64,000 bases of DNA from an uncultured Thermoleophilia bacterium (GCA_963699725.1 CAVOVA010000001.1:5836-69835), one strand, 5' to 3'; shown: positions 37,617 through 58,680, counted from the first letter of the stretch. Notes: generated by a model not told the origin, from the sequence alone. Numbers and translations are program-made.

Positions 37617-37694
37617 CGTGGATGCTACCGCGCCCGCCCGCGCCGGACGGGCTCGGGTCCGCCAATCCCCAGCCGTGAGCGGAGGTCGGAGAGT

Positions 37695-40298: not shown

Positions 40299-41128
40299 AG
40301 AAATGGCACATGGTCATCGACGTGGCGCGCTGCCACGACTGCAACGACTGCTTCCTCGCCGACAAGGACGAGTTCGTCGACAACGAGTTCCCGCCGTATT
40401 CGGCGGCGCAGCCGTGGCACGGCCACCGCTGGATGAACATCAAGCGCAAGGAGCGCGGCCAGTACCCCCTGGTGCAGACCGCGTACCTGCCGATGCCGTG
40501 CATGCACTGCGACGAGGCTCCCTGTCTCACCGCCGACGGCGCCGTCTACCGGCGCGAGGACGGGATCGTGATCATCGACCCGGTGAAGGCCAAGGGCCGC
40601 AAGGAGATCGTCGCCAGCTGCCCGTACTCGGCCATCTACTGGAACGAGGAGAAGGAGCTGGCGCAGAAGTGCACCGGCTGCGCCCACCTGCTCGACGACG
40701 GCTGGACCGAGACGCGCTGCAGCCAGGTCTGTCCGACCGAGGCGATCAAGCTGGTGATGGCCGAGGAAACGGAGATCGAAGCCCTGGTGGCGGCGGAGGG
40801 TCTCGAACGCTACCGCGACGCGCTCGGCGCCAGGCCGCGCGTGTACTACAAGAACCTGCACCGCTGGGAGAAGGCGTTCGTCGGAGCCAGCGTCGTGTTC
40901 GGCGACACCGACGAGTGCGCCGAGGGGGCGGCCGTCACCGTCATGCGCGACGGCGCCGTCGTCGGTGAGGGCACGACCGATCTCTTCGGCGAGGTGGCCG
41001 TGGATCACCTCGAGCCCGGCCACGAGTATGTCGTGCGCATCGCCGCGGACGGCTACCAGCCGATCGAGCTGACCGTCCAGATTGACGCCAGCCTCAACGC
41101 CGGGACGGTGTTCCTGGAGAAGGCCTAG
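40295..41128 (+). CDS. bthL: Transhydroxylase small (Fe-S) subunit homolog with C-terminal beta-barrel domain
   Basis: 277 aa, against 274 aa for BthL. ATGA overlap with the alpha stop. Cys groups CHDCNDC, CMHCDEAPC, SCP and CTGCAHLLDDGWTETRCSQVCP, plus a ~95-aa C-terminal domain. Confidence 0.85.
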   Translation: MKKWHMVIDVARCHDCNDCFLADKDEFVDNEFPPYSAAQPWHGHRWMNIKRKERGQYPLVQTAYLPMPCMHCDEAPCLTADGAVYRREDGIVIIDPVKAKGRKEIVASCPYSAIYWNEEKELAQKCTGCAHLLDDGWTETRCSQVCPTEAIKLVMAEETEIEALVAAEGLERYRDALGARPRVYYKNLHRWEKAFVGASVVFGDTDECAEGAAVTVMRDGAVVGEGTTDLFGEVAVDHLEPGHEYVVRIAADGYQPIELTVQIDASLNAGTVFLEKA

Positions 41129-41347: not shown

Positions 41348-43060
41348 ATGCCTGACCTTCTTCACGTCGATCTGACCGAGCGGACCGCGGCCAAAGGACC
41401 GTTGCCCGCAGACCACGAGATGCTCGGTGGGCACGCGCTCACGTCGGCGATCGTCGCCGCAGAGGTCGATCCCACGTCGGACCCGCTGGGTCCGGACAAC
41501 GTGCTGGTCTTCGCCGCCGGGCTGTACGCGGGCACCATGGTGCCGAACGGCGGCAGGCTCTCGGCCGGCGCCAAGAGTCCCCTCACGGGCGGCATCAAGG
41601 AGGCCAACTCCGGGGGTTCCACCGCGCGCACCATGTCGCGGCTGGACCTGCGCGGCATCAAGCTCACCGGCCGCGCGGACTCGCTCAGCGTGGTCGAGAT
41701 CGACGCGGGCGGCGCCAGGATCGTCCCTGCCGCGGATCTGCAGGGGGCGGGCTCGTATGAGACGGTGGCCCGCCTGCGCGAGAAGTACGGCGACAAGGTA
41801 TCGATCATCTGCATCGGACCCGCCGGCGAGATGGGCCTCAAGGCGGCGGCGATCATCACCACCACCCCGGACTTCTACCTGCGCGCGGCGGCCCGCGGCG
41901 GCCTCGGCGCCGTCATGGGCGCGAAGAACGTCAAGGCCATCGTCGTCGACGGCGCCGGCGGCTCGGGCGTGACGGTCGCCGACAAGGCAGCGCTGAAGGC
42001 GGCGTCCGCAGCGCTCAACAAGGGCATCCTCTCCCACCCGGCCATGGCCGCCCTCGAGGCGCTGGGATCCGCGTTCCTGGTCAATGTCAGCCAGTCCATC
42101 GGCTGTCTCACCACGAAGAACTTCTCCGTCGGGCAGTACGACGATGCCCAGGCGATCAGTGGCGAGCACATGGCCGAGCTGCTTACCGGGCGACCGAACG
42201 GCGCCACCAAGCACAGCTGCATGGCCGGCTGCATCGTCAACTGCTCCCAGGTCTACACGGACGCCGACGGCAACGTCGTCACGTCCGGTCTCGAGTACGA
42301 GACGATCGGCCTTATCGGCGCCAACTGCGCCATCGACGACCTCGATCACATCGCCCGGATCGACCGGCTGTGCGACGACCTGGGCCTCGACACCATGGAG
42401 ATCGGCGCTGCCCTGGGCGTCGCCATGGAGGGCGGCCTCATCGACTGGGGCGACGGCGTCGCCGTGTGCGCGCTGCTGGAGAAGCTGACCGACGGCGACG
42501 CCGACGCGGCGCTCATCGCCAACGGCTGCGTCGCGACGGGCGCCAGGCTCGGCGTCACCCGCGTGCCGGCCTGCAAGGGCCAGGGCATGGCCGCCTACGA
42601 CCCACGCGTCCTCAAGGGGACGGGTACGACCTACGTGACCACGCCGCAGGGCGCCGACCACACGGCCGGCAACGCGCTGCCGAGTCCGGCCAACCCGGAC
42701 TACGACCCCGGTTCGCCGGAGGGCCAGGCCCAGATGTCAGAGTTTCTCCAGGCGTACTTCGCCGCGATCGACTCGCTCGGCATGTGCCTCTTCGCCACGC
42801 TGCCGGCGCTCGACATGCCGGAGCTCCAGGGCCACTTCGTCGCGGCGGCGTCCGCGATCCTGGGCAAGGACCTGCCGGAGGACTATCTCACCAGCATGGG
42901 CAGGGACGTCGTGCTGATGGAGCGGGACTTCAACCGTCGCGCCGGGTTCACCGCCGCCGACGACCGGATGCCCGCGTTCCTGTGCGAGGAGCCGGTCGCG
43001 CCCAGCGGCAACGTGTACGACGTCGACGAGGCCGATCTGGACGCCATGTTCACGTCGTGA
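41348..43060 (+). CDS. Aldehyde:ferredoxin oxidoreductase (AOR) family tungsto/molybdopterin enzyme
   Basis: Part of ORF 41168-43060, from ATG 41348 (AAGGGAG RBS). NGGRLSAGAKSPLTGG, GLGAVMGAKNVKAIVV, HSCMAGCIVNCS and EYETIGLIGANC blocks. Confidence 0.85.
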   Translation: MPDLLHVDLTERTAAKGPLPADHEMLGGHALTSAIVAAEVDPTSDPLGPDNVLVFAAGLYAGTMVPNGGRLSAGAKSPLTGGIKEANSGGSTARTMSRLDLRGIKLTGRADSLSVVEIDAGGARIVPAADLQGAGSYETVARLREKYGDKVSIICIGPAGEMGLKAAAIITTTPDFYLRAAARGGLGAVMGAKNVKAIVVDGAGGSGVTVADKAALKAASAALNKGILSHPAMAALEALGSAFLVNVSQSIGCLTTKNFSVGQYDDAQAISGEHMAELLTGRPNGATKHSCMAGCIVNCSQVYTDADGNVVTSGLEYETIGLIGANCAIDDLDHIARIDRLCDDLGLDTMEIGAALGVAMEGGLIDWGDGVAVCALLEKLTDGDADAALIANGCVATGARLGVTRVPACKGQGMAAYDPRVLKGTGTTYVTTPQGADHTAGNALPSPANPDYDPGSPEGQAQMSEFLQAYFAAIDSLGMCLFATLPALDMPELQGHFVAAASAILGKDLPEDYLTSMGRDVVLMERDFNRRAGFTAADDRMPAFLCEEPVAPSGNVYDVDEADLDAMFTS

Positions 43061-43138: not shown

Positions 43139-43984
43139 ATGTCACCGCGTCGATCCAGCAGTCAGACCAAGCGCGGCCGCGGCAGGGAGGCCGGAGACCG
43201 CGGCGAGAGCCAGTTCGTCGTCCAGGCGTTGGCCAAGGGACTGGCCGTGCTCTCGCTCTTCGACGCCGAGAACCGGGAGTGGAGCCTCGACGAGATCACG
43301 GCGGAGCTCGGGCTGCCGCGCATGACTGCCTATCGCATGGCCCGGACCCTTCTGGGCGCCGGCTATCTGGTCACCGACCAGGTGTCCGGCAAGTATCGCC
43401 TCGGACCGGCGCTGCTCGCGTCGACGTATCTCTCCGAGGGCTACGCGGAGCTGGTCGCGATGGCCCAGCCGTATCTCCGGTCGCTGGTGGATGAGACGGG
43501 GGAGTCGGCCACGCTGGCGGTGGAGGTCGACGGCGTGGCCGTCTGCGTCGCCATGCTCGAATCGATCCGCCCGCATCGGAGAGAGGTGGCGGTCGGCCGC
43601 ATCATCGGCGACACGGCGAACGCGCACGGCAAGATGTTCGCGGCGTGCAAGTCGGAGAAGGAGCGCGAGGCGATCGTCACCTCGGAGCTCGAGCGGCGCA
43701 CGCCCGAGACGATCACCGACCCTGAAGAGTTGCGTCAGAAGCTCGAGGAGGCACGGCGGCAGGGCGTCGCCTTCGACCTCGAGGAGCGCGACGCGGGCAC
43801 CTGCGCCTGCGCCGCGCCCGTTCGCGACCAGACCGGCAAGGTCATCGCCACGCTGGCCGTCGTCGTGCCGACGGGGCGGTTCGACGCCGAGGCCCGGGAG
43901 AACTGCGCCGCCGCCGTCAAGAGCGTGGCGGCTTCGTTCTCAGCCTTCTTCGGCTACTCCGCGACGAGCGACGACACGCAGTAG
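43139..43984 (+). CDS. IclR-family transcriptional regulator (paralog 1)
   Basis: 281 aa. wHTH WSLDEITAELGLPRMTAYRMARTL and an IclR effector domain. Highly similar to 53451-54314. Confidence 0.85.
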   Translation: MSPRRSSSQTKRGRGREAGDRGESQFVVQALAKGLAVLSLFDAENREWSLDEITAELGLPRMTAYRMARTLLGAGYLVTDQVSGKYRLGPALLASTYLSEGYAELVAMAQPYLRSLVDETGESATLAVEVDGVAVCVAMLESIRPHRREVAVGRIIGDTANAHGKMFAACKSEKEREAIVTSELERRTPETITDPEELRQKLEEARRQGVAFDLEERDAGTCACAAPVRDQTGKVIATLAVVVPTGRFDAEARENCAAAVKSVAASFSAFFGYSATSDDTQ

Positions 43985-44070
43985 CCGCGGTTCGCCCCGG
44001 TCCAGGGGCGGACCGGCACGAAGCGCCACCGTCACGACGCCGCGCCAAACGTTCGGATCGCGATCGCACG

Positions 44071-44114
44071 TTGCCGTACGGTATGCGCATGAGATAATCT
44101 GATATGCGAATACC
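44071..44114 (+). promoter_or_regulatory. Candidate promoter (-35 TTGCCG, -10 TAATCT) overlapped by an 11-bp inverted repeat GGTATGCGCAT-N13-ATGCGAATACC
   Basis: AT-rich island in high-GC DNA, 50-90 nt upstream of the dehydrogenase start. One mismatch between the arms. Confidence 0.4.
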
Positions 44115-44163
44115 ATTGCGCCCGCCGAGCGGCAGGGCGGCGTCGAGTGCGAGGAGCTTCGGA

Positions 44164-45123
44164 GTGGGTGTCGGGGACGTCCGGAAGGTGGCGGTGATCG
44201 GTGCTGGCACGATGGGACCTGGCCTCGCCCAGGTCTTCGCCGGCGCCGGGTATCCGGTCTCACTCTTCTCTCGCTCGGAGGCGACGCTGACGAAGGCCAT
44301 GTCCGTCGCCGCCGCCAACGTGGAGACGTTCGTGAGGCACGGCCTCTTCGACGCCGACGAGGCGACCGCCGTCGTGACCCGCATCAGCCCGACGCAACGG
44401 CTGGAGGAGGCGGGGACCGGCGCAGACCTCGTCGTCGAGGCGATCGCCGAGGACATGGACGCAAAGGGCGCCGTGTTCGCCGAGCTCGACGCGGTGTGCC
44501 CCGACGACGCCGTGCTCACGAGTACCACGTCGTACCTCGACATCTACGAGGTCGTCCCCCCACGGCGGCTCCCGAACACGGTCATCGCCCACTGGTTCGC
44601 GCCGCCGCACATCGTCCCGCTGGTCGAGGTGGTCAAAGGAGAGATGACGAGTGAGGACACCGTGGTCGCGCTACTCGCGCTGCTCACGCGTCTGGGAAAG
44701 ACGCCGGTCGTCATGGAGCGCTTCGTGCCCGGGTTCTGCATCAACCGTCTGCTGCGCAGTATCGGGCGCGAGGTCTTCTTCCTGCTCGACAACGGCTACG
44801 TGACGCCGGAGCAGCTGGACCTCGCGGTCAAGTCCAGCCTCGTGCCCCGGGCCATGGTGCTCGGGTTCGTCCAGCGGTACGACTTCACGGGGCTGGACCT
44901 CAGCCTGGCCAACCTGCGCAATCCCCACTACGTAGAGCCGCCGCGGGACGACGCGCCGCCCAGCCTCGCCACTCGCGTCGAGAGGGGCGAGTTGGGCGTC
45001 AAGACCGGCAAGGGCTTCTTCGACTACGGCGGCCGGGAGCTCGAGGAGATCCTGGCGGCGCGCGACGACGAGCTCATCCGGGCGGTCGCGGCGACCCGCG
45101 GCCTCGTGAAGGAGCCGGCGTGA
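44164..45123 (+). CDS. 3-hydroxyacyl-CoA dehydrogenase-family NAD-dependent dehydrogenase
   Basis: ORF 44104-45123. Start set at GTG 44164 (GAGGAG 7 nt upstream). VAVIGAGTMGPGLAQVFA Rossmann motif. HWFAPPHIVPLVEV. Confidence 0.8.
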   Translation: MGVGDVRKVAVIGAGTMGPGLAQVFAGAGYPVSLFSRSEATLTKAMSVAAANVETFVRHGLFDADEATAVVTRISPTQRLEEAGTGADLVVEAIAEDMDAKGAVFAELDAVCPDDAVLTSTTSYLDIYEVVPPRRLPNTVIAHWFAPPHIVPLVEVVKGEMTSEDTVVALLALLTRLGKTPVVMERFVPGFCINRLLRSIGREVFFLLDNGYVTPEQLDLAVKSSLVPRAMVLGFVQRYDFTGLDLSLANLRNPHYVEPPRDDAPPSLATRVERGELGVKTGKGFFDYGGRELEEILAARDDELIRAVAATRGLVKEPA

Positions 45124-45989
45124 TGGCGGTCAGGAGACTCCCGGCAGGCAGAGTCATCGTCACGGCGGCGCTCAACGGCGCTTTCGTGACCAAGGACGTC
45201 AATCCGAACGTGCCGGAGCAGCCGGAAGAGATCGCGCAGGCGGCGCTCGACTGCCACGACGCGGGCGCAGCCATCGTGCACATCCACGCGCGCGACGAGC
45301 AGGGCAGGCCCTGCGGCTCGCGCGCGCGGTTCGAGGAGATCCTTGCCGCCGTTCGCAGCCGTTGTCCCGACGTCATCGTCAACTTGTCCACCGGCGGGGG
45401 CACCAACCTCACCATCGAAGAGCGGGTCTCGTGCCTGGACGCCGACCCGGAGATGGCCTCGCTCAACATGGGAACGCTCATGCGCCAGTCCGGGCCCAAT
45501 GCCGGCGAGCCCTTCGTCAACATGACCGCCGACATCGAGGCTTGGGCGGCCAAGATGAAGGCGATGCGCATCAAGCCGGAGATGGAGTGCTACTCGCAGA
45601 GCATGTACCGGGACGTGCGCAATCTCATTGCCAAGGGGCTCGTCGAGCCGCCCTTCTACGTCAACTTCGTACTCGGCATGAAGCACCAGGGCGCCGTCGA
45701 GGCGACACCCGAGATGCTGACCTCCATGTACCAGGCGCTTCCCGAAGGCTGCTTCTTCAACGTCACCGCCACCGGCGCCGCGCAGCTTCCGCTCACGACG
45801 ATGGGCATGGTCATGGGCGGCGCCGTGCGCGTAGGCCTCGAGGACAACATCTACTATCGCCGGGGCGAACCCGCCCGCAGCAACGCGCAGCTGGTCGAGC
45901 GCACGGTCCGCCTCGCCCGGGAACTCACCCTCGAACCGGCCACGCCGGACGAGGCCAGGGCCATCCTGGGCGTCGTCAAGAAGAACTAG
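45120..45989 (+). CDS. BKACE-family (DUF849, beta-keto acid cleavage) enzyme
   Basis: 289 aa. VTAALNGA..., AAIVHIHARDEQG and GGAVRVGLEDN blocks. GTGATG junction with the upstream stop. Confidence 0.8.
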   Translation: MMAVRRLPAGRVIVTAALNGAFVTKDVNPNVPEQPEEIAQAALDCHDAGAAIVHIHARDEQGRPCGSRARFEEILAAVRSRCPDVIVNLSTGGGTNLTIEERVSCLDADPEMASLNMGTLMRQSGPNAGEPFVNMTADIEAWAAKMKAMRIKPEMECYSQSMYRDVRNLIAKGLVEPPFYVNFVLGMKHQGAVEATPEMLTSMYQALPEGCFFNVTATGAAQLPLTTMGMVMGGAVRVGLEDNIYYRRGEPARSNAQLVERTVRLARELTLEPATPDEARAILGVVKKN

Positions 45990-46009
45990 CTGACCAGGAG
46001 GACGCACGC

Positions 46010-46780
46010 ATGGAGGATCTCTTCTCTCTCGAGGGCAGGAACGCTGTGGTCCTGGGGGCCGGCGGTATGGGCGCGGCGATCGCCGCCGGCCTGCTGCGCT
46101 TCGGCGCGAGGCTCGAGGTGGCCGATCGTGACGCGGCGGGGCTGGCACGGTGCGCTACGAACCTCGCAGAAGCGGGCTATCCGACCGTTGGCATCCACGA
46201 GGTGGACGCCACTGACGAGAGCAGCATGCAGGCGCTCGTCGAGGCGACGGTGGCGAGCATGGGCAAGGTCGACATCCTCGTCAATGCCCTCGGCTACAAC
46301 TTCAAGGCCAACGCGACCGAGTTCCCGATGGACGAGTGGGACAGGCTGTTCAACGTCAACGTCAGGGCCGTCATGATGGCCTGCAAGCTGTTCGGCGCGC
46401 ACATGGTCGAGCAGGGTGGCGGCAAGATCATCAACCTCTCGTCGGTGCGCGACGATCGCGGCGCGCTTGGCGGCAACGCGGGCTACTGCGCCACCAAGGG
46501 CGCCGTCAAGATGATCACCAGGCAGCTGGGCGTCGAGCTGGCGCCGCACAAGGTCTACGTCAACGCGCTTGGACCCATCATCACCGTGACACCCATGACC
46601 GCCGAACGCATCAAGCAAGACGCCTCTCGTTACGAGCGCATGCTGTTGAACGTGCCGATGGGCCGCATGGCCGACGTGGAGGACCTGGTCGGTCCGGCCG
46701 TGTTCCTCGCGTCGTCCGCGTCGGACTTCATCACCGGTACGGTGCTGTACGTCGATGGCGGCATGATGGCCTACGCCTGA
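46010..46780 (+). CDS. Short-chain dehydrogenase/reductase (SDR)
   Basis: Part of ORF 45362-46780, from ATG 46010 (CAGGAGG RBS). VLGAGGMGAAIA, NALG, and YCATKGAV (YxxxK). Confidence 0.8.
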   Translation: MEDLFSLEGRNAVVLGAGGMGAAIAAGLLRFGARLEVADRDAAGLARCATNLAEAGYPTVGIHEVDATDESSMQALVEATVASMGKVDILVNALGYNFKANATEFPMDEWDRLFNVNVRAVMMACKLFGAHMVEQGGGKIINLSSVRDDRGALGGNAGYCATKGAVKMITRQLGVELAPHKVYVNALGPIITVTPMTAERIKQDASRYERMLLNVPMGRMADVEDLVGPAVFLASSASDFITGTVLYVDGGMMAYA

Positions 46781-46802
46781 GGCAGGACGAGGAACGAGGC
46801 CC

Positions 46803-47996
46803 ATGAACGACGTCGTCATCGTCTCCGCGGTGCGCACCGCGCTCGGCCGGCTCGGCGGGGCGCTCAAGGACGTGCCGCCCGAGGAGCTCGCCAGGGTCGT
46901 GATCGCGGCCGCGGTCGAGCGCGCCGGCGTCGAGCCGGCGGAGGTCGACGAGGTCGTCCTGGGCCAGACCAAGCAGAGCGCCGACGCCGCCAACCTGGCG
47001 CGGGTGGCGGCGCTCAAGGCCGGTTTCCCGGTCGAGGTGCCGGCCTACACCGTCATGCGCCAGTGTGGCTCCGGTCTGCAGGCGGTGGGCAACGCCGTGC
47101 AGGCCATCCGCGCCGGCGACGCCGAGATCGTCGTCGCCGGCGGCGTCGAGAGCATGAGTCTGGCGCCGTACTACCTGCGCGGCGCTCGCTTCGGCTTCGT
47201 CTCCGGCAACAGCGTCCTCGTCGACCCCAACACGGAGAGCCAGCCGCGCTCGCAGCCCTACGAGGTCTACGGAGACCTCACGATGGGACTCACCGCGGAG
47301 AACCTCGCGGAGAAGTTCGCCATCACGCGCGAGGAGCAGGACGCGTACGCGCTGCGCAGCCAGGAGCGCGCCTTCGCCGCCATCCGCGCGGGGAGGTTCG
47401 AGGACGAGATCGTGCCGGTGGAGGTGCCGCAGAAGAAGGGTCCGCCGGCGGACTTCGCCGTCGACGAGTATCCGCGACGCACGAGCCTCGCGCAGCTCGC
47501 CGCTCTCAAGCCGCACTTCAAGGAGGGCGGCACGGTCACCGCCGGGAACGCCTCGGGACGCAACGACGGCGCCGCCTGCCTCGTCCTGATGTCCGCGGAG
47601 GCTGCGCGGGCGCGCGACATCACGCCGCTGGCGACGGTGCGCGCCCACGCGGTCGTCGGCGTCGACCCGCGGTTCATGGGTATCGGGCCCGTCCCCGCCG
47701 CCCGCAAGGCGCTCGAGCGGGCCGGCCTCGCACTCGCGGCGATCGGCCTCGTCGAGATCAACGAGGCCTTCGCGTCGCAGACGATCGCCTGCGTGCGCGA
47801 GCTCGGCCTGGATGAGGACACCCTGAACGTCAACGGAGGCGCCATCGCGCTCGGACATCCCCTGGGCTGCTCCGGCGCCCGCATCCTCACCACCCTGCTC
47901 CACGAGATGCGCAAGCGCGGCACACGCTACGGGCTCGCCGGTATCTGTATCGCCGGCGGTCAGGGCATGGCCACGATCATCGAGACCGCCGGGTAG
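46803..47996 (+). CDS. Acetyl-CoA C-acetyltransferase (thiolase II)
   Basis: 397 aa. MRQCGSGLQA active-site Cys, and NVNGGAIALGHPLGCSGARI. Confidence 0.9.
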   Translation: MNDVVIVSAVRTALGRLGGALKDVPPEELARVVIAAAVERAGVEPAEVDEVVLGQTKQSADAANLARVAALKAGFPVEVPAYTVMRQCGSGLQAVGNAVQAIRAGDAEIVVAGGVESMSLAPYYLRGARFGFVSGNSVLVDPNTESQPRSQPYEVYGDLTMGLTAENLAEKFAITREEQDAYALRSQERAFAAIRAGRFEDEIVPVEVPQKKGPPADFAVDEYPRRTSLAQLAALKPHFKEGGTVTAGNASGRNDGAACLVLMSAEAARARDITPLATVRAHAVVGVDPRFMGIGPVPAARKALERAGLALAAIGLVEINEAFASQTIACVRELGLDEDTLNVNGGAIALGHPLGCSGARILTTLLHEMRKRGTRYGLAGICIAGGQGMATIIETAG

Positions 47997-48038
47997 CCGG
48001 GAGGCCCACCCGTCTTGACCACGTTGAAGGAGAGAGAA

Positions 48039-48845
48039 ATGACAGATGTCGTCACCGATCCCTACTCGGGACTTCAGCTCATCGAGCTGAGCCACGTGTG
48101 GGGCCACGGCGTCCCGTCCGAGCCGGGACAGCTGGACGTGCGCATGGTGCGCGCGGTCAAGCACGCCCAGCACGGCGTGCTCGCCTGGCGGGTCACCACC
48201 AGCCTGCACACCGGCACCCACATGAACGCGCCCATCCACATGGTCCAGCGCGGCGACGACCTGGCCGCCGTCTCCCCGGACCGTCTCTTCGGCAACGCCG
48301 CCGTGCTCGACGTCCCCAAGGGTAGCTGGGAGGTCATCACGGCGGCCGATCTCGAGGCCGCATCGCCGGGCGTCGAGGACGGCGACATCGTCGTCATCGT
48401 CACGGGCTGGCACCACAAGTACTCCGACGGCCTCGAGTACTTCGGCGAAGCTCCGGGTCTCACGAAGGACGCCGCCGAGTGGTTGATAGCGAAGAACCCG
48501 AAGTTCGTGGCCGTCGACACGCCGTTCATCGACGTGCCGCTCGCGACCTCCATGGGCCCGCATCGCGGCGGCCCGCAGATGAAGCGCCTCGCGCCCGCGT
48601 ACAAGGCCGCGACGGGTCGCGACGCCAAGGCCGACTTCCCGGACTGGTTCCCGGCCCACAAGGCCCTCGCCGCCGCCGGCATCCCGACGGTCGAGCAGGT
48701 CGGTGGTGACGTCGACCTCGTGAAGGGCAAGCGGGCCACCATCGCCGCGACCCCCTGGAAGTTCGAGCACGGCGACGCCTGCCCCATCCGCATGGTCGCC
48801 ATGCTCGACCCGTCCGGCAAGCTGCGCGTCGACGCCGGCAACTGA
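48039..48845 (+). CDS. Cyclase-family (kynurenine-formamidase-fold) protein, paralog 1
   Basis: ORF 48015-48845. ATG 48039 follows GAAGGAGAGAG. HTGTHMNAPIH is a variant of the HxGTHxDxPxH metal motif. Confidence 0.75.
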   Translation: MTDVVTDPYSGLQLIELSHVWGHGVPSEPGQLDVRMVRAVKHAQHGVLAWRVTTSLHTGTHMNAPIHMVQRGDDLAAVSPDRLFGNAAVLDVPKGSWEVITAADLEAASPGVEDGDIVVIVTGWHHKYSDGLEYFGEAPGLTKDAAEWLIAKNPKFVAVDTPFIDVPLATSMGPHRGGPQMKRLAPAYKAATGRDAKADFPDWFPAHKALAAAGIPTVEQVGGDVDLVKGKRATIAATPWKFEHGDACPIRMVAMLDPSGKLRVDAGN

Positions 48846-48873
48846 CGATCCGCCGACGAGAAGGGAACCGGAC

Positions 48874-49656
48874 ATGAGTCTGAAGGTCTACAACCTGAGC
48901 CACACGTTCACGCAGTTCATCCCGGAGTGGCCATCCACGCCGAGCGTCAACGTCAAGGTGAGCAAGTTCCACGCCAAGGACGGCGTCTACGAGGTGGAGT
49001 GGGAAGGCATCATGCACCGCTGCACGCACATGGATGCGCCGCTCCACGTCACCGAGAACACGCCGAGCATCGCCGACTACCCGCTCTGGCGCCTGGTCGG
49101 CACCGGCGTCTGCGTCGACATCCCCAAAGGCAAGTGGGGTGTCATCACCCCCGAGGACCTCGAGAACGCGACGCCCACGATCGAAGAGGGCGATATCGTC
49201 ATGATCAACACCGGCTTCCACCGCCTGTGGGCCGACACCGACGAGTACTTCGCCTACGGCTGCGGCATGGGGGCCGATGGCGCCCGATGGCTGGTCGACA
49301 AGAAGGTCAAGCTGGTGGGCTACGGTCATCAGGCCAACGACCACCCGATCGCGACCAAGCTGGTCGACCACGGCCTCGGCCCGAGCCAGCCGCACCTCAT
49401 AGAGGAGTACAAGGCCGAGACCGGCCGCGACCCCAAAGAGGACTTTCCGAGCTGGGAGCCGGCGCACAAGATCCTCATGTGTCAGGGCGGCATCCCCGGC
49501 ATCGAGAACGTCGGCGGCGACCTGGACGAGGTCACCGGCAAACGCTGCACCTTCCTCGCGCTGCCGTGGCGCTGGCCGGGCGGCGACGGCTGCATGGTCC
49601 GCATCCTCGCGGTCGTGGATCCGGACCAGACGTTCCGTTTCGAGACGGGACAGTGA
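48874..49656 (+). CDS. Cyclase-family protein, paralog 2
   Basis: 260 aa. HRCTHMDAPLH motif variant and GDIVMINTGFH. Confidence 0.75.
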   Translation: MSLKVYNLSHTFTQFIPEWPSTPSVNVKVSKFHAKDGVYEVEWEGIMHRCTHMDAPLHVTENTPSIADYPLWRLVGTGVCVDIPKGKWGVITPEDLENATPTIEEGDIVMINTGFHRLWADTDEYFAYGCGMGADGARWLVDKKVKLVGYGHQANDHPIATKLVDHGLGPSQPHLIEEYKAETGRDPKEDFPSWEPAHKILMCQGGIPGIENVGGDLDEVTGKRCTFLALPWRWPGGDGCMVRILAVVDPDQTFRFETGQ

Positions 49657-49667
49657 GAGGGAGTGAC

Positions 49668-50879
49668 ATGACGGACATTCTGGAGGGTGTGAAGGTCATC
49701 GAGATGGGCCACGTCGTGGCCGTCCCTGCGGCCTCGTCGATGATGGGCGACTGCGGCGCCGACGTGATCAAGATCGAGCCGCTCACGGGCGACCAGTCGC
49801 GGACCTTCCGCGGCACCGACATCAACCCGGGCTTCTATCTTCACAACCGCAGCAAGAAGAGCATCGCGATCGACCTCCGGCAGCAGGCCGGCAAGGAGAT
49901 CGTCTACAAGATGGTCGGCGACCACGACGTGTTCCTGACCAACTATCAGGCAGGATCCCTGGAGCGCCTGGGCCTCGACTACGAGACCCTGTGCGGCTAC
50001 AAGAAGAACATCATCTACGGCATCGTCTCGGCCTACGGCACCGTGGGTCCGGACAAGGACATGGCCGGCTATGACTTCGCCGCCGGGTGGGCACGCTCCG
50101 GCATCCAGGACATGCTGAGCGCGCCGGGCACGCCGCCGCCGGCCTCCCGGCCCGGCATCATCGACCGCGTCTCGTCCATGCAGATCTTCGGCGGCATGTG
50201 TGCGGCCCTCTATCACCGGGAGCACACGGGCGAGGGCCAGAAGGTGGAGTTCAACCTGTACCACACCGGCGTGTGGATGGTGGGCGCCGACATCATGGAC
50301 GCCCTCTTCGGGCTGCCGCTGCGGCGGGTGGACCCATCCAAGTCCGACAACCCGTTCTACGACGTCTACGAGTGCAAGGACGGCCGCTGGCTGCAGCTCA
50401 CGGCGGCCGACCGCTACGCCAAGGCGCACGATCCGGCCGGCGCCAAGTTCTGGCAGTCCTTCACGCGTGCCCTCGACCGGCCGGACCTAGCCGAGGATCC
50501 GCGCTTCGCGACCACCGACATGCGCCAGCAGCACCGCGACGTCCTCACGCCGATGCTCAACGACGTGTTCAGGTCGCGCACCTATGCGGAGTGGGAGGAA
50601 CGCCTCCGCGCCGAGAACCTGATGTACGGCCCCATCCTCTCGCCCGAGCAGGTGATCGAGGATCCGCAGGCGCTGGCCAACGACTTCTTCGCCGAGGTCG
50701 ACCAGCCCGGCGTGGGCACGATCCGCACGATCAACTCACCGAACAAGTTCGTGCAGAACCCCGCCTCGATCAAGTCGCTGACGCCGGGTCTCGGCGAGCA
50801 GACGGACGAGATCCTCGGCGAGCTCGGCTACACCACGGGCGGCATCGATGAACTGCGTGAGGCCAAGGTCATCCTCTGA
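49668..50879 (+). CDS. Family III CoA-transferase (CaiB/BaiF type)
   Basis: Part of ORF 48927-50879, from ATG 49668. LEGVKVIEMGHVVAVPAASSMMGDCGADVIKIEP, and the LGEQTDEIL C-terminus. Confidence 0.85.
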   Translation: MTDILEGVKVIEMGHVVAVPAASSMMGDCGADVIKIEPLTGDQSRTFRGTDINPGFYLHNRSKKSIAIDLRQQAGKEIVYKMVGDHDVFLTNYQAGSLERLGLDYETLCGYKKNIIYGIVSAYGTVGPDKDMAGYDFAAGWARSGIQDMLSAPGTPPPASRPGIIDRVSSMQIFGGMCAALYHREHTGEGQKVEFNLYHTGVWMVGADIMDALFGLPLRRVDPSKSDNPFYDVYECKDGRWLQLTAADRYAKAHDPAGAKFWQSFTRALDRPDLAEDPRFATTDMRQQHRDVLTPMLNDVFRSRTYAEWEERLRAENLMYGPILSPEQVIEDPQALANDFFAEVDQPGVGTIRTINSPNKFVQNPASIKSLTPGLGEQTDEILGELGYTTGGIDELREAKVIL

Positions 50880-50916
50880 CCGGACGCCTGTGCAGCGGAC
50901 CCCACAAGGAGCCACG

Positions 50917-51366
50917 ATGACAGACGCGCAGACCAACGAGCAGAAACGGGTGCTCCTCGGAGATGGGCTCTTCACCCCGACAGAGCCGGGTGAAGACGGC
51001 CAGATCATCGCCACGCACTGCAACTCGTGCGGCGACTACTTCTTCCCGCGCAGCTTCACCTGCCACAACCCCGACTGCGAAGAGAAGGACGTCGAGGACG
51101 TCGCCCTCAGCTCCACCGGCACGGTCGACACCTACTCGGACATGAGCTACCCGCCGCCGCCGCCGTTCGTGGCGTCCAAGGAGGACTGGGAGCCCACTCC
51201 GGTGGTCTCGGTGAAGATGCCCGAAGGCATCCACATCATCGGGATGATGGAAGGCTGCACGCCCGAGGAAGTCTCCATCGGCATGCCCGTCAAGACCGTG
51301 ATCCGCGTGCTCTACACCAACAAGAACGGTGAAGAGCTGGTCGGCTGGAAGTTCAGGAGGGTCTGA
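50917..51366 (+). CDS. DUF35 Zn-ribbon/OB-fold protein (thiolase partner)
   Basis: 149 aa from ATG 50917 (AAGGAG RBS). CNSCGDYFFPRSFTCHNPDC rubredoxin-like ribbon followed by an OB-like domain. Confidence 0.75.
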   Translation: MTDAQTNEQKRVLLGDGLFTPTEPGEDGQIIATHCNSCGDYFFPRSFTCHNPDCEEKDVEDVALSSTGTVDTYSDMSYPPPPPFVASKEDWEPTPVVSVKMPEGIHIIGMMEGCTPEEVSIGMPVKTVIRVLYTNKNGEELVGWKFRRV

Positions 51367-51368
51367 CC

Positions 51369-52556
51369 GTGGACGATATCGCCATCATCGGAGCGGGTCT
51401 GCACCCCTGGGGCAAGTTCCCCGAGAAGTTCTGGACCAACATGGCGTCGGACGCGATCTACGAGGCCCTCGAGGATGCCGGCATCACCTGGAAGGACATC
51501 GAGATCGTCGTCTCCGGTTCGCAGAACTGGGGCGGGCGCAAGGGTATCTATGCCGGGAGCTACATCGACGAGGTCATGGGCTACACCGGCGTGCCCACCA
51601 TGAACATCAACAACGCGTGCGCCACGGGCGGCACCTGCATCGCCGTAGCTGCCGCGATGGTCGCCTCGGGCCAGGCCGACATCGTGCTGGCCGTCGCCGC
51701 CGACAAGTCGGCGAAGGGCTTCTTCCCCTTCCTGCCGCCCTACCACGAGGAGCCGGTGCCGGCCGACGACACCATGCGCTGGCTGATGGGCCTGCCGAAC
51801 CCGGTGTACTGGGCGCTCGAGTGCCGCAAGAAGATGGACAGGTTCGGCATCACCGACGAGCACCTCGCCATGGTCAAGGTCGCCACCAGCAAGCACGGCT
51901 CCCTCAACCCGGCGGCGCGCTATCAGAAGGAGTTCACCCTCGAGGAGGTCCTCGCGTCGCCGATGGTGACCAACCCGCTGCGCCTGTACGAGATCTGCGC
52001 GACCAGTGATGGCGCCGGGGCCGTGATCCTCTGCAACGCCAAGAAGGCGAAGCAGTTCACCTCCAAACCCATCACGATCTGCGGCTCCGGCCTCGGCAGC
52101 CCGCTGTACGGCGACCCGACGACGCGCATCCCGGTGCTCGGCTTCCAGCCCAAGGAGGGCATGCCGATCATCAGCGAGAGCTGGGTCGCGGCCCGGGCCG
52201 CCTTCGAGGATGCGGGCATGGGCCCGGAGGACATCGACTTCGTCGAGGTGCCGGACAACAGCTCGTGGCACTACTTCCAGTACCTCGAGACCATGGGCTT
52301 CTTCGAGGAGGGCACGGCTCACCTCGCGCTCGAGCGCGGCGAGACGGTGATCGGCGGCAGACTGCCGGTCTGCCCCAGCGGCGGCTTCTCCAGCTTCGGC
52401 GAGGCCACCATGGCGCAGGGGTTCGCCCAGGTCTACGAGATGGTCCTGCAGCTGCGCGGCCAGTGCGGCGCTCGGCAGGTGGAGGGCGCCAGGGTCGGCA
52501 TGTCCGAGGTCTACGGCATGGCCGGCAACAACGCCGCCCTCATCCTCAAGAACTAG
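51369..52556 (+). CDS. Thiolase-fold protein of the SCP-x/DUF35-associated type
   Basis: 395 aa. NNACATGG active-site Cys, and CPSGGFSSFGEA. Starts 2 nt after the DUF35 stop. Confidence 0.8.
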   Translation: MDDIAIIGAGLHPWGKFPEKFWTNMASDAIYEALEDAGITWKDIEIVVSGSQNWGGRKGIYAGSYIDEVMGYTGVPTMNINNACATGGTCIAVAAAMVASGQADIVLAVAADKSAKGFFPFLPPYHEEPVPADDTMRWLMGLPNPVYWALECRKKMDRFGITDEHLAMVKVATSKHGSLNPAARYQKEFTLEEVLASPMVTNPLRLYEICATSDGAGAVILCNAKKAKQFTSKPITICGSGLGSPLYGDPTTRIPVLGFQPKEGMPIISESWVAARAAFEDAGMGPEDIDFVEVPDNSSWHYFQYLETMGFFEEGTAHLALERGETVIGGRLPVCPSGGFSSFGEATMAQGFAQVYEMVLQLRGQCGARQVEGARVGMSEVYGMAGNNAALILKN

Positions 52557-52567
52557 GGGGAGGCATC

Positions 52568-53350
52568 ATGGCCGACTACGCGACCATCCTCTACGACACG
52601 GCGGATCACGCGGCGTGGATCACGCTGAACAGACCGGAAGTGCTCAACGCGCAGAGCGACGAGCTGCGCGCGGAGGTGACGCAGGCGCTCGAGCGCGCCA
52701 GCCTGGACGACGACGTCCACGTCGTCGTCGTCACGGGCGCCGGGGAGAAGGCCTTCAGCGCCGGCGCCGACATCAGCCAGTTCCCGGAGCGGTACCCGGT
52801 GGACGTGGTCACCGCCAAGGCGCGGCGACGTCCCTACGAGACCATCCGCGAGATGCCCAAACCGGTCGTCGCCGCCGTCAACGGCCTCGCCCTCGGCGGC
52901 GGCTGCGAGCTGGTGCTGGCCTGCGACCTGGTCGTCGCCGCCGACACCGCCAAGTTCGGCCAGCCGGAGATCCGCGTCGGCGTCATTCCCGGCTGCGGCG
53001 GCACGCAGATCCTGCCGCGGCTGATGGGGGAGAAGCGCGCCAAGGAGTTCATCTTCACCGGGCGCATGATGGAGGCCGACGAAGCGCTCGGGTACGGCAT
53101 CGTGAACAAGGTCGTGCCGCTCGCCGAGCTCCGCGAGGCGACGGAGAAGCTCGTCAACGACCTCCTGCGCAACAGCCCGGCGATCCTCAAGCTGGCCAAG
53201 ATCGCCGTCAACAAGTCGCTCGAGACGCCGCTCTCCGTCGGCATGAGCTACGAGCGGGATCTCTTCGCGATGTGCTTCGGCACCGACGATCAGAAGGAGG
53301 GCGCCAAGGCGTTCCTCGAGAAGCGCAAGCCCACCTACACAGGGACATGA
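52568..53350 (+). CDS. Enoyl-CoA hydratase/isomerase (crotonase)
   Basis: 260 aa. VVVTGAGEKAFSAGADI, AAVNGLALGGGCELVLACD, and KEGAKAFLEKRKP. Confidence 0.9.
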   Translation: MADYATILYDTADHAAWITLNRPEVLNAQSDELRAEVTQALERASLDDDVHVVVVTGAGEKAFSAGADISQFPERYPVDVVTAKARRRPYETIREMPKPVVAAVNGLALGGGCELVLACDLVVAADTAKFGQPEIRVGVIPGCGGTQILPRLMGEKRAKEFIFTGRMMEADEALGYGIVNKVVPLAELREATEKLVNDLLRNSPAILKLAKIAVNKSLETPLSVGMSYERDLFAMCFGTDDQKEGAKAFLEKRKPTYTGT

Positions 53351-53387: not shown

Positions 53388-53450
53388 TCCCCGCATCAGA
53401 TGCGCGGGAGCGCGGGCGGGGGTGCGACACTGAGCCAGGGGAGAAGGGCG

Positions 53451-54314
53451 ATGGCGAACATCACGGCGGCAGGCGAACGCCGCAAGCGGGAGCATCCCGC
53501 AGACGGCCGGCGGCGCGGCGGCGACGCGCTCGTGCTGCGCACGCTCGCCGGCGGATTGGCGATGCTGGGTCTCTTCGACGCCGAGCATCGCCAGTGGAGC
53601 CTGGACGAGATGGTCGCCCACCTCGGGGTGTCGCGGATGACCGGCTATCGCATGGCACGCACCCTCCAGAGCACCGGGCACCTCGTGTACGAGCCGGAGG
53701 CCGGCAGGTATCATCTCGGGCCGGCCATGCTCGCAGGCATCTATCTGGCGGAGGACTTCGCTCAGCTCGTGACGATCTCGCGGCCGTATCTCGAGTCGCT
53801 GATGAAGGAGACCGGGGAGCTGGCCGCCCTGGCGGTGGAGCTCGACGGCGTCGCGGTCTGTGTCGACCTCGTCGCCTCCGCGCGCCCCTTCGTGCCCGAG
53901 ATCGCCATGGGGCGCACGATCGGAGACACGGCGAACGCCCACGGCAAGATGTTCGCCGCCATGAAACCCGATGCCGAACGGGCGCGGATCGTCGGCAGGC
54001 CGCACGAGCGGCTCACGCCGGCGACGATCACCGACCCCGACGCGCTGGCGGCCGAGCTGGAGAAGATCAGGAGTGATGAACTGGCCTACGACCTCGAGGA
54101 ACACGACCTCGGCACCTGTGCCGTGGTCGCGCCCGTGCGGAACCAGATGGGAGAGGTCATCGCGACGCTTGGCGTCGTGGTCCCCACGGGTCGTTTCGAC
54201 CCCGAGGCAAGAGCGGTGTGCGCCGAGGCGGTGAGGGTCACGGCCGCCTCCCTCTCCGAGTTCTACGGGTACTCGCGACCGGTCGCGCGGCGCGGCGGCG
54301 CCGGTACGCAGTGA
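53451..54314 (+). CDS. IclR-family transcriptional regulator (paralog 2)
   Basis: Part of ORF 53400-54314, from ATG 53451. WSLDEMVAHLGVSRMTGYRMARTL, GRTIGDTANAHGKMFAA and VVVPTGRFDPEARAVCAEAV mirror paralog 1. Confidence 0.85.
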   Translation: MANITAAGERRKREHPADGRRRGGDALVLRTLAGGLAMLGLFDAEHRQWSLDEMVAHLGVSRMTGYRMARTLQSTGHLVYEPEAGRYHLGPAMLAGIYLAEDFAQLVTISRPYLESLMKETGELAALAVELDGVAVCVDLVASARPFVPEIAMGRTIGDTANAHGKMFAAMKPDAERARIVGRPHERLTPATITDPDALAAELEKIRSDELAYDLEEHDLGTCAVVAPVRNQMGEVIATLGVVVPTGRFDPEARAVCAEAVRVTAASLSEFYGYSRPVARRGGAGTQ

Positions 54315-54736: not shown

Positions 54737-56113
54737 ATGATCGCCGAGTCCGACCTCCTGGCATTGTCCCATCCGGGCGCGCCCAAGATGGTGACCGAGG
54801 TCCCGGGTCCCAAGGTCAACTCGCTCATGGCCGAGTCGGCCAAGTATGAGTCGTTCACCCGCGGCGGCGGCGGGTTCCCGGTCATCCTCGAGCAGGGCAA
54901 GGGTTCCACCGTGTTCGACGCCGACGGCAACCTCTATATCGACATGGCGGCCGGCGTTGCCGTCAACGCGGTCGGCCGTGGCCATCCCAAGGTCCTCGAG
55001 GCGATCCGGCGCCAGTGCGACGTCATCATGCACACCACGGACATCACCAACCCCAAGCGCATCGAGCTCGCCAAGAAGGTCTCCGGCATCATGCCCGAGG
55101 GTCTCGCCGGGAACTGCCACACTGCTGTCTATCAGGCCGGCAGCGACGCCGTCGAGACGGCCATCAAGTTCGCCCGCGCGTACACCGGCCGTTCGCAGCT
55201 CCTCGCCTTCCACGGCGCCTATCACGGGGTCTGGTGCGGCACCGCGGCGCTCACCACGTCCTACAACTACCGTCACGGCTGGGGTCCGCTGATCGCCGGC
55301 GTGCAGCACCTGCCGTACGCCTACTGTTACCGCTGCCCGTTCGGCAAGGAGTACCCCTCCTGCGACCTGCAGTGCGGCAAGTACGTGGACGACGTCCTCA
55401 ACGGCCCGTACACAGGCGCCGACGACGTCGCCGCCGTGGTGATCGAGTCGCAGCAGGGTGAGGGCGGGTACGTGGCTCCGCCGCCAGAGTTCCTTGAGGC
55501 GGTCAAGACCGCCTGCGAGAAGAACGGCTGCCTCTACATCGCCGACGAGGTGCAGTCCGGAGCGGGCCGCACCGGCAAGATGTGGGCCATTCAGTACTCA
55601 TCGGTGGTCCCCGACATGCTTACCTGGGGAAAGGGCATGGGCGGCGACATGCCGATGGCCGGCGTCACCTATCGCGCCGACATGGAAGAGGCCCTGCGCG
55701 AGGGCTCGCAGCCGAGCACCTTCGCCGGCAACGCCATGGGGTGCGAGGTCGCGATGACCAACATCGACCTCATCACCGACCCGGAGACGGACCTCCTCGG
55801 CCGCGCCGCGGCGCTCGGCGAGGAGATCAAAGGCCTCTTCACCGACGCGATGTCGACCGTCAAGGCCATCGGTGACGTGCGCGGCAACGGCCTGATGGTC
55901 GGCATCGAAGTGGTGGCCGACCGCAAGACCAGGGAGCCGCTGGCCGGCGAGAAGGTCGGCGAGATCGCCTTCAAGCTGCTCAACCGCGGCATCCTCATGA
56001 CGCCATGCGGGCGGCACGGCAACGTCTTCCGCTTCATGCCGCCGCTCACGATCCCGCATGACTATGCCGTGAGCGCGACGGACATCATGCTCGACATCCT
56101 CAAGGAGTACTGA
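54737..56113 (+). CDS. Class III (omega/4-aminobutyrate-type) PLP aminotransferase
   Basis: 458 aa. SGSDAVE-like block QAGSDAVETAIKFAR, DEVQSGAGRTGK, and TWGKGMGG (PLP Lys). Confidence 0.85.
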   Translation: MIAESDLLALSHPGAPKMVTEVPGPKVNSLMAESAKYESFTRGGGGFPVILEQGKGSTVFDADGNLYIDMAAGVAVNAVGRGHPKVLEAIRRQCDVIMHTTDITNPKRIELAKKVSGIMPEGLAGNCHTAVYQAGSDAVETAIKFARAYTGRSQLLAFHGAYHGVWCGTAALTTSYNYRHGWGPLIAGVQHLPYAYCYRCPFGKEYPSCDLQCGKYVDDVLNGPYTGADDVAAVVIESQQGEGGYVAPPPEFLEAVKTACEKNGCLYIADEVQSGAGRTGKMWAIQYSSVVPDMLTWGKGMGGDMPMAGVTYRADMEEALREGSQPSTFAGNAMGCEVAMTNIDLITDPETDLLGRAAALGEEIKGLFTDAMSTVKAIGDVRGNGLMVGIEVVADRKTREPLAGEKVGEIAFKLLNRGILMTPCGRHGNVFRFMPPLTIPHDYAVSATDIMLDILKEY

Positions 56114-56217
56114 GCGGAGCGGCATCCGATCGCGCCGCCGCCCGCGGCCAGTCACACGAGACTGTGGCCCGCCGCGGACCCCGCCGTCCCACGGACGCCC
56201 AAATGGGGAGGGTCGCC

Positions 56218-57036: not shown

Positions 57037-57370
57037 TCACGATGCCGTCGCCAGGAGCCTTTGCCGCCTTCGACCTTTTCCACTATCGTCAGCTGACATT
57101 GTGGCCACCTTGGTCAACTCAGCGCCGGCGGGAGCCGAGCGGCGCCTCGGTTCTTCCCAGCCGGACGAAGGGAGCGAGGATCAGACAGACCATGTGACTT
57201 GAATCGCGACCGGCAGTCCCAGGTCCGCCGCCGTCGGCACTCCGGCCTCCAGTCCCGGAGCGTGAATGGGACGGCAGAATGGGACTCGGACATGCCTCGC
57301 GTACAAGGCCCGCAGCCGTGCAGCGCGGCACGCGGAACGTTCTGAACGACATCAAAGGGGGACAGAGACC

Positions 57371-58597: not shown

Positions 58598-58647
58598 CAC
58601 CTCGGCGGCGTCAAGCGGGCGCGGGACGCCGCAGGTTGGGACGAAGA

Positions 58648-58680
58648 GGGGCTCACGGCGGGATGCCGTGAGCCCCCCTT
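58648..58680 (+). terminator. Perfect 12-bp hairpin GGGGCTCACGGC-GGGAT-GCCGTGAGCCCC followed by CCTT
   Basis: Lies 50 nt after the SBP stop. Confidence 0.5.

Follow-up and report, generated by a model that had tools for sequence, protein, structure and literature searches.

Predicted oxygen-independent conversion of pyrogallol via phloroglucinol to acetyl-CoA encoded by a gene locus of an uncultured Thermoleophilia bacterium

Gene content and organization of the locus

The DNA analyzed here, 64,000 nt from an uncultured Thermoleophilia bacterium (a soil actinobacterium; GCA_963699725.1 CAVOVA010000001.1:5836-69835) and referred to below as the window, has a G+C content of ~69% over its whole length. 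It carries a gene locus that is predicted to encode an oxygen-independent route for two plant phenols, by which pyrogallol would be converted to phloroglucinol, the aromatic ring cleaved and the products channelled to acetyl-CoA. We assign this reading a probability of roughly 0.7; that the locus serves the degradation of pyrogallol or phloroglucinol is likewise considered likely.

Genes were accepted as real on the basis of family matches and third-position G+C. Between positions 37695 and 54314 every gene is located on the + strand, with short gaps or overlaps, and the intergenic spacing inside gene blocks ranges from -4 to 49 nt (4-nt overlaps; gaps of 2-49 nt). A preceding sequence-only reading had proposed an apparently complete phloroglucinol-to-acetyl-CoA route within positions 43139-53350, and Pfam searches recovered all of the families that it named where it had placed them or within a few codons. 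The IclR genes that it described at each end are also present, the second one just beyond that range, as are the athL/bthL-like genes (37695-41128) upstream. The reported GTGATG junction between the dehydrogenase and BKACE genes was found as well: the TGA stop codon occupies positions 45121-45123, and the BKACE gene starts at either GTG 45120 or ATG 45123, with AGGAG located 6-9 nt upstream. The genes of the locus are as follows.

37695-40298, +, AthL orthologue, large subunit of pyrogallol-phloroglucinol transhydroxylase (1214 bits to 4V4C_A; AhtL-like_1st domain)
40295-41128, +, BthL orthologue, Fe-S small subunit (270 bits to 4V4C_B, 47% identity)
41348-43060, +, protein of the aldehyde:ferredoxin oxidoreductase (AOR) family (AFOR_N/AFOR_C), between the transhydroxylase genes and IclR1
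43139-43984, +, IclR-family regulator 1, IclR1 (HTH_IclR and IclR_C)
44164-45123, +, 3HCDH-family dehydrogenase, HAD (3HCDH_N/3HCDH), proposed (S)-3-hydroxy-5-oxohexanoate dehydrogenase resembling the triacetate-forming dehydrogenase (TfD)
45120-45989, +, BKACE enzyme (PF05853, 315 bits), proposed triacetate acetoacetate-lyase (TAL-like)
46010-46780, +, classical short-chain dehydrogenase/reductase, SDR (adh_short_C2), proposed from its context as phloroglucinol reductase (PGR)
46803-47996, +, canonical acetoacetyl-CoA thiolase (TIGR01930, 471 bits, cutoff 240; Cys, GHP and CxG motifs)
48039-48845, +, Cyc1, degenerate partner of a cyclase pair (PF04199)
48874-49656, +, Cyc2, putative catalytic subunit of dihydrophloroglucinol cyclohydrolase (DPGC; PF04199)
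49653-50879, +, family III CoA-transferase (CoA_transf_3, 324 bits; alternative ATG start at 49668)
50917-51366, +, DUF35 protein with zinc ribbon and OB fold (OB_ChsH2_C, zf-ChsH2), partner of the following protein
51369-52556, +, SCPx-type thiolase-like protein (Thiolase_C_1) with a non-canonical active site
52568-53350, +, crotonase, i.e. enoyl-CoA hydratase, ECH (ECH_1, 245 bits; GGGCEL and GQPE motifs)
53400-54314, +, IclR-family regulator 2, IclR2 (family match)

Predicted steps of the route

It was not until 2023 that genes of the phloroglucinol pathway were identified, in Firmicutes. The four enzymes described were PGR, an SDR with a TR(S/N) NADPH motif; DPGC, a cyclase-family protein with Mn2+ and the residues Trp20 and Tyr22; TfD, a 3HCDH protein that lacks Lys56 and Asn221 of the CoA-dependent dehydrogenase HBD; and TAL, a BKACE protein in which Trp16 replaces Glu14 of the lysine-fermentation enzyme Kce (Zhou et al. 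2023, PMC10470551). The same paper lists short DPGC homologues on bioinformatic grounds (UniRef50_A5U375; Mycobacterium, Archaeoglobus, proteobacteria and RBG Actinobacteria) and makes no mention of paired or fused cyclases (PMC10470551). As in the window, these homologues of 250-290 aa are co-located with SDR, 3HCDH and BKACE homologues; one entry comes from Actinobacteria bacterium RBG_16_64_13, the source genome of a locus (L074) in our own set.

The Clostridium scatologenes cluster (PGR, DPGC, TfD, TAL, thiolase and CtfAB; PMC10470551) resembles that of the window in combining SDR, cyclase, 3HCDH, BKACE and thiolase genes in one operon, and the same overall chemistry is expected. There are, however, several differences. 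DPGC of C. scatologenes is a single 312-aa protein, whereas the window has two cyclase genes, one of them with an Asp to Asn change, and the enzymes are 30-37% identical. Where C. scatologenes has the family I CtfAB, the window has a family III CoA-transferase; the DUF35/thiolase-like pair and the crotonase are additional. The window cluster contains neither a cupin nor an MFS transporter gene, and its regulators are of the IclR family instead of the sigma-54 type.

For the locus analyzed, the following steps are proposed. AthL/BthL would isomerise pyrogallol to phloroglucinol, as suggested by orthology, and the SDR, as suggested by context, would reduce the latter to dihydrophloroglucinol, with NADH rather than NADPH as the possible cofactor. 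A heteromeric cyclohydrolase, with Cyc2 as the catalytic and Cyc1 as the second subunit, would then open the ring to give 3-hydroxy-5-oxohexanoate. From here, a branch of the characterised free-acid type would involve oxidation to triacetate by the TfD-like HAD, cleavage of triacetate with acetyl-CoA by the BKACE enzyme to yield acetoacetate and acetoacetyl-CoA, and formation of acetyl-CoA by the canonical thiolase.

CsDPGC and CsTfD, the references for characterised C. scatologenes enzymes, were taken from the machine-read supplement text of Zhou et al. 2023 (PMC10470551). Proxies for PGR, TfD and TAL came from an uncharacterised canonical Firmicute locus (L001; cupin-SDR-3HCDH-cyclase-BKACE-CtfAB), whose DPGC is 83% identical to CsDPGC. 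Relatives were searched for with a degenerate-pattern scan based on a Cyc2 alignment, using one genome per species; they were present in 553 species genomes, and 80 loci were fetched from these.

AthL aligns with 4V4C_A, the large subunit of the crystallised Pelobacter acidigallici enzyme, at 59% identity over residues 1-865 (99% of the length), and has the domains PF21423, PF00384 and PF01568 of a DMSO-reductase-family large subunit with an AhtL-type N-terminal domain. The motifs SSHH, NPDSW and PGYAEGG are retained; they contain His144, Asp174 and Tyr404, catalytic according to the structural literature, and Ser175, the Mo ligand. BthL aligns with residues 1-272 of 4V4C_B and comprises a Fer4_11 domain and, in agreement with the expected beta-barrel, a C-terminal CarboxypepD_reg domain; the start codon of its gene overlaps the athL stop codon (ATGA). 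The proteins resemble P. acidigallici AthL/BthL (PDB 4V4C) in being full-length orthologues with conserved catalytic residues and no twin-arginine leader, and on these alignments AthL/BthL is a good orthologue of the Pelobacter enzyme.

The window contains a second AthL-like/BthL-like pair (3369-6868, - strand), also with an AhtL-like first domain and a CarboxypepD_reg domain. Its identity to the first pair is only 34%/42%, and the SSHH, NPDSW and PGYAEGG motifs are missing from it, so that it is probably a different hydroxylase or transhydroxylase.

Cyc2 and Cyc1 are 41% identical to each other and match CsDPGC with 37% identity (E=1e-49) and 29% identity (E=1e-29), respectively; the best solved cyclase-family structures, kynurenine formamidases and isatin hydrolases, reached ~1e-9 in a PDB search for which Cyc1 was the query. 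In a neighbour-joining tree with isatin hydrolase as the outgroup, Cyc1 and Cyc2 form sister clades that are jointly sister to the long DPGCs of Firmicutes. Judged from sequence, both cyclases belong to the DPGC lineage. The metal ligands of DPGC (His, His, Asp, His and Glu) are all present in Cyc2 of the window (HRCTHMDAPLH, WEPAH and IENVGG), together with Trp19. Cyc2 orthologues, 79-98% identical across the fetched loci, always have HR[CG]THMDAP with Asp and retain the Trp of EWPS. Cyc1 orthologues carry HTGTH[ML]NAP, with Asn for Asp, wherever this motif could be located (73 of 77), and the equivalents of Trp20 and Tyr22 are both absent from Cyc1.

The two genes form an adjacent tandem in all 80 loci, and two database proteins (P0002 and P0110) are natural single-chain Cyc1-linker-Cyc2 fusions, in which the Asn motif and the Asp motif are joined by a Ser/Lys-rich linker of ~30 residues. 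From the homology to DPGC, the universal pairing and these fusions, the enzyme is inferred to be a heteromer in which one subunit is catalytic and the other degenerate. The earlier assignment of the cyclases as DPGC holds as regards the lineage, with the correction that they are not one enzyme duplicated but a conserved pair with one degenerate partner. The clustering as a whole is not due to chance, since Cyc1 and Cyc2 always adjoin and the other genes recur in defined combinations. In other genomes, too, the cyclase pair has links to phloroglucinol. Transhydroxylase-like (TH-like) genes lie beside it in ~27 of the 80 loci; the pair adjoins a gene for phloretin/DAPG hydrolase in L090, while the gene order in Microbaculum (L086) is Cyc-Cyc-SDR-3HCDH-cupin, with a PGR-like SDR and a TfD-like HAD. 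The possibility that the cyclase pair hydrolyses phloroglucinol directly, so that clusters without HAD would need no dehydrogenase, was also considered; no evidence in its favour was found.

HAD shows the traits expected of a TfD. The catalytic Ser, His and Asn are conserved (TTSYL, AHWF and INRLL, aligned with Ser117, His138 and Asn188 of HBD), whereas Gly and Ala occupy the CoA-contact positions Lys56 and Asn221. In addition, a 3-residue insertion with Arg is shared with TfDs and absent from CoA-dependent HBDs. BLAST scores were 172 bits to the L001 TfD versus 131 to the CoA-dependent HBD 4KUH, with overall identities (33% versus 34%) that do not discriminate. The loss of Lys56 and Asn221 and the TfD-type insertion agree with the triacetate-forming dehydrogenase that had been suggested.

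The BKACE gene is translationally coupled to that of HAD, and its product retains the Zn ligands (HIH and the Glu of the GLEDN motif). With the NCBIfam Kce model it scored 300.8 bits (cutoff 382), while the canonical TAL proxy scored 308. TAL function is suggested by the missing Glu, the coupling to a free-acid dehydrogenase and the genetic context. Its assignment as TAL is thus supported by the lack of the Kce Glu14 and by a score pattern like that of canonical TAL, but not by the residue found at this position, which is Phe and not the Trp of TAL.

Several observations weigh against the proposed route. The assignments for this variant are based on sequence, with identities of 30-37% to characterised enzymes, and the reference sequences are proxies, not the exact characterised proteins. 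The SDR has the Tyr-x3-Lys of a catalytic SDR (YCATK, aligned with YCTSK/YCTAK of PGRs), but the NADPH 2'-phosphate motif, TGRN in the PGR 5G4K and TGRS in that of L001, is VADRD, which suggests the use of NADH; its relatives have ADVN or SSRN/ASRN at this position. Its identity is 30-31% with both 5G4K and the L001 PGR, versus 33-34% with the gluconate 5-dehydrogenase Ga5DH and KduD. Among its PDB matches 5G4K ranks 15 (122.9 bits versus 141.9 for the top match), and since it scores no better than gluconate dehydrogenases this search does not discriminate; a true PGR gives 344 bits with 5G4K, compared with ~123 for the window SDR. The window SDR belongs to a group with 44-78% mutual identity whose members adjoin the cyclase pair in Thermoleophilia, Desulfobacterales, a Desulfitobacteriia metagenome-assembled genome (MAG) and Propionivibrio, and are 30-36% identical to 5G4K and the L001 PGR, i.e. 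no more than to the gluconate 5-dehydrogenase/KduD outgroups. By contrast, the SDR of Microbaculum (L086) is PGR-like (38-42% identity; PTVFRS motif). An SDR match lies within 10 kb of the cyclase pair in ~48 of the 80 loci; many loci have the pair without such a gene in this range. Since the window SDR shows no special closeness to PGRs and lacks the NADPH motif, its designation as PGR is drawn from its position and context, and the earlier assignment as an NADPH-dependent phloroglucinol reductase found no support in its clustering.

Other points concern substrate contacts and known transhydroxylase loci. Ser replaces the CsDPGC substrate residue Tyr22 in Cyc2, and is invariant in a 20-sequence alignment (A1); the BKACE position of Kce Glu14 and TAL Trp16 is taken by Phe, or by Gly in L079 and L080. 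Neither catalytic His is retained in the thiolase-like protein. In a Pelobacter-like genome (L088/L089), with AthL 96% identical to the crystallised enzyme, neither SDR nor cyclase genes occur within 10 kb, and for this reason an attempt to tie these two families to Pelobacter biochemistry was abandoned. The flanking genes there encode a cupin, an FMN reductase, TauE, a fused family I CoA-transferase, a LigAB-like protein and a gallate decarboxylase (UbiD/LpdD/UbiX-like); the window, unlike the Pelobacter-like genome with its UbiD/LpdD/UbiX set, has no gallate decarboxylase.

The NCBIfam scan of all locus proteins gave no match to a PGR or DPGC model, BKACE models scored below their cutoffs, and no characterised member of this variant was found in the literature searched. 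The pathway itself is known, and similar clusters were listed in 2023; this locus is a diverged variant with a predicted two-subunit DPGC, a reductase outside the PGR clade, a Phe-type lyase and an extra CoA module. The route as originally proposed is partly supported: the evidence favours its overall course, the transhydroxylase, the DPGC lineage and the TfD/TAL traits, but not a clustering of the SDR with PGRs or a CoA module confined to acetoacetate and C4 units.

The anaerobic breakdown of phenols derived from tannins and flavonoids bears on carbon storage in anoxic soil and peat (the 'enzyme latch' idea). The locus would place the full capacity for conversion of pyrogallol to acetyl-CoA in Thermoleophilia. 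The version found in hundreds of non-Firmicute genomes differs from the characterised one in its predicted two-subunit ring-opening enzyme, its reductase outside the PGR clade and its extra CoA module; given this divergence, annotation tools seeded on the Firmicute enzymes may miss or misjudge it.

Cluster architectures and alternative readings

The nearest relatives retrieved are uncultured Thermoleophilia MAGs from soil and groundwater, with Cyc2 91-98% identical to that of the window. One of them (L005) shares the gene order of the window, BthL-AOR-IclR-HAD-BKACE-SDR-Thl-Cyc1-Cyc2-CoAT-DUF35-SCPx-ECH-IclR, and a linked transhydroxylase also occurs in L010, L018, L070, L079 and many Desulfobacteraceae loci, in addition to L005. 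Three architectures are present among close relatives: both modules together, HAD-BKACE-SDR-Thl-Cyc1-Cyc2 alone, and SDR-Cyc1-Cyc2-CoAT-DUF35-SCPx-ECH alone. Desulfobacteraceae MAGs contain genes for IclR, TH-like proteins, a cupin, SDR, Cyc1, Cyc2, an ADP-forming acyl-CoA synthetase, ECH, DUF35 and SCPx, and lack HAD and BKACE.

The CoA module is thus separable from the HAD-BKACE-thiolase genes, which suggests that it constitutes an alternative branch, a second route from the ring-cleavage product rather than mere C4 housekeeping. In this branch, of an uncharacterised CoA-ester type, the family III CoA-transferase would activate the C6 acid (or acetoacetate), and the crotonase and the DUF35/thiolase-like pair would process the CoA ester. 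As a CoA-activating enzyme is present in clusters without the lyase, it probably acts on the ring-cleavage product itself. As written, the branch is incomplete: HAD-less clusters show no hydroxy-acid dehydrogenase, which is a further point against the proposed route. No NCBIfam model matched the CoA-transferase at or above its cutoff, and no DeoC-type aldolase was seen in the locus.

Within this module, the thiolase-like protein retains the Cys of NACATG, while HDCF is changed to PDNS and GHP to GEA; both changes are conserved in Desulfobacteraceae orthologues and hence across phyla. The two-gene combination of a DUF35 protein and an SCPx-type thiolase-fold protein is the architecture of the Ltp2-ChsH2(DUF35) steroid aldolase, the benzoylsuccinyl-CoA thiolase BbsAB and PhlC/PhlB. 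Scores of the window protein with these relatives were 119 bits for BbsB, 92 for Ltp2 and 89 for PhlC, and the closest PDB entries are a putative acyl-CoA acyltransferase (4YZO) and SCP2 thiolases. We know of no characterised member with the Cys kept and PDNS/GEA in place of the other motifs. Brune and Schink are said to have proposed in 1992, on biochemical evidence, a route from triacetate via CoA-transferase and thiolase for P. acidigallici, which resembles the CoA module of the window. If real, a second route encoded by this module would provide the genetic basis of the CoA-dependent route that enzyme assays led others to propose decades ago. The wider proposition, that the widespread short DPGC is an obligate heteromer, fused in some genomes, and that the CoA module, with a family III transferase or an ADP-forming ligase for CoA activation, represents a BKACE-independent second route shared by Actinomycetota and Desulfobacterota, is put forward tentatively, at less than even odds.

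The strongest competing explanation for these genes is that the CoA-transferase, the DUF35/thiolase-like pair and the crotonase merely tidy the lyase products, turning acetoacetate into acetoacetyl-CoA and then acetyl-CoA and interconverting C4 units. The CoA-transferase (CtfAB) and thiolase of the C. scatologenes cluster have exactly this task, the window crotonase has both catalytic Glu residues of a canonical short-chain hydratase, and the module immediately follows the core genes within their operon. The sequence-only reading had taken this simpler view, and it may apply to the window itself. However, the module accompanies SDR-Cyc1-Cyc2 in close relatives and Desulfobacteraceae that lack HAD, BKACE and the thiolase, where no lyase would supply acetoacetate. 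Moreover, the window already has a canonical thiolase, and the thiolase-like protein is devoid of the His needed for ordinary thiolysis. We regard product handling as the sole role of the module as the less likely reading.

Another substrate is a further option: the SDR/cyclase/HAD/BKACE set might act on some other reduced phenol or cyclic 1,3-dione, such as a derivative of hydroxyhydroquinone or resorcinol, or an acyl-phloroglucinol. The position of the SDR outside the PGR clade and the altered substrate contacts (Tyr22 to Ser in Cyc2, Trp16 to Phe or Gly in BKACE) would fit this, as would the second, divergent AthL/BthL-like pair of the window, pairs of this kind being frequent near the cyclase pair. 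Nevertheless, none of the catalytic residues of the phloroglucinol-forming transhydroxylase has been lost from the adjacent Mo enzyme; similar cyclase pairs adjoin a PGR-like SDR in L086 and phloretin hydrolase in L090; and a 3-hydroxy acid dehydrogenase coupled to BKACE suits 3-hydroxy-5-oxohexanoate. A different substrate seems improbable in comparison with phloroglucinol.

Finally, it is very hard to sustain that HAD-BKACE serves an unrelated beta-hydroxy acid pathway, that of carnitine or of lysine fermentation through 3-keto-5-aminohexanoate, and is adjacent by accident. Kce is the best NCBIfam model and the top PDB match (2Y7D) of BKACE, and carnitine dehydrogenase models match HAD weakly, but the Kce score is below the cutoff and nearly equalled by canonical TAL, Phe stands where Kce has the 5-amino-binding Glu14, and the locus showed no further genes of lysine fermentation or carnitine metabolism. 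HAD-BKACE is, moreover, co-transcribed with the SDR and cyclase genes, and its synteny with them is shared by Propionivibrio (L080) and Desulfitobacteriia (L079) as well as by Thermoleophilia. Both readings were accordingly rejected, and the carnitine or lysine-fermentation specificity that would have spoken against the phloroglucinol route was not seen.

Further variation was observed among the fetched loci. Identities to the window are mosaic in the Thermoleophilia loci L003-L018 (SDR 66-69% or 79-92%; Cyc1 76-79% or 84-94%), and the class of a locus is not tied to its flanking genes, a pattern that points to recombination between cluster types. The CoAT-DUF35-SCPx genes are tandemly duplicated in L015. 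A cultured strain, Propionivibrio dicarboxylicus DSM 5885 (L080), has the order HAD-SDR-thiolase-Cyc1-Cyc2-BKACE, with the above-mentioned Gly at the Kce Glu14 position. A small Cupin_2 protein (~110-135 aa), absent from the window cluster, recurs in phloroglucinol and transhydroxylase clusters from several phyla (L001, L060, L086 and L088, and 17 of the 80 loci).

Regulators and neighbouring genes

IclR1 and IclR2 are 61% identical, and these two paralogues probably regulate the operons. Promoter-like sites were distinguished at three places only (versus 1.1 expected), namely in front of athL, of the HAD gene and of the aminotransferase gene further downstream, all of them as consensus matches only. 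The first two, and the genes for molybdenum supply that adjoin the transhydroxylase genes on their upstream side, are as follows.

31874-35036, -, molybdate ABC transporter, modABC (ABC_tran and TOBE for ModC, BPD_transp_1 for the ModB permease, SBP_bac_11 for the ModA-type binding protein, all Pfam)
36369-37490, -, MobA-MobB fusion for molybdopterin guanine dinucleotide cofactor synthesis (NTP_transf_3 and MobB), divergent from athL
37560-37587, +, promoter-like site TTGACA-16-TAGGAT upstream of athL
44071-44098, +, promoter-like site TTGCCG-16-GATAAT with TG, upstream of the HAD gene

The position of the second site would favour 44164 as the start of the HAD gene over ATG 44104. A search of the intergenic regions for a shared IclR operator yielded weak and unconvincing ATGCG-containing palindromes only; inverted repeats with ATGCG at 37589-37622 (after the athL site) and 44075-44115 (HAD) may be IclR operators. 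The molybdate transporter is accessory to the Mo enzyme.

The gene of the AOR-family protein is conserved in 11 Thermoleophilia relatives at 66-85%. A role as a BamB-like ring reductase was rejected, as the protein scored 66 bits with the benzoyl-CoA reductase BamB versus 262 bits with the AOR 9MQX. To our knowledge, the accepted phloroglucinol pathway involves no aldehyde intermediate.

The region at ~6772-27889 contains a tetrahydromethanopterin/methanofuran C1-transfer module that encodes Mch, Ftr, an Fhc-like GXGXG protein, an MtdB-like Mpt_N protein, 4-HFC-P synthase and FolE2, as well as pterin and CitG-like biosynthetic genes. Such a module is unexpected beside an actinobacterial phenol-degradation locus, and it may handle formaldehyde released from methoxylated aromatics. 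Between this module and the molybdate transporter, there is a gene for a DUF2193 protein (746 bits), whose family has been described as archaeal, next to one for a MIP-family channel (28669-31064, - strand). Downstream of IclR2 (54737-63791) there are genes encoding a class III aminotransferase (86-96% in relatives), MoaF, a Peripla_BP_6 binding protein, an Fe-alcohol dehydrogenase and a Liv-type ABC transporter; these may serve to take up the same substrates and to carry out side reactions on them.

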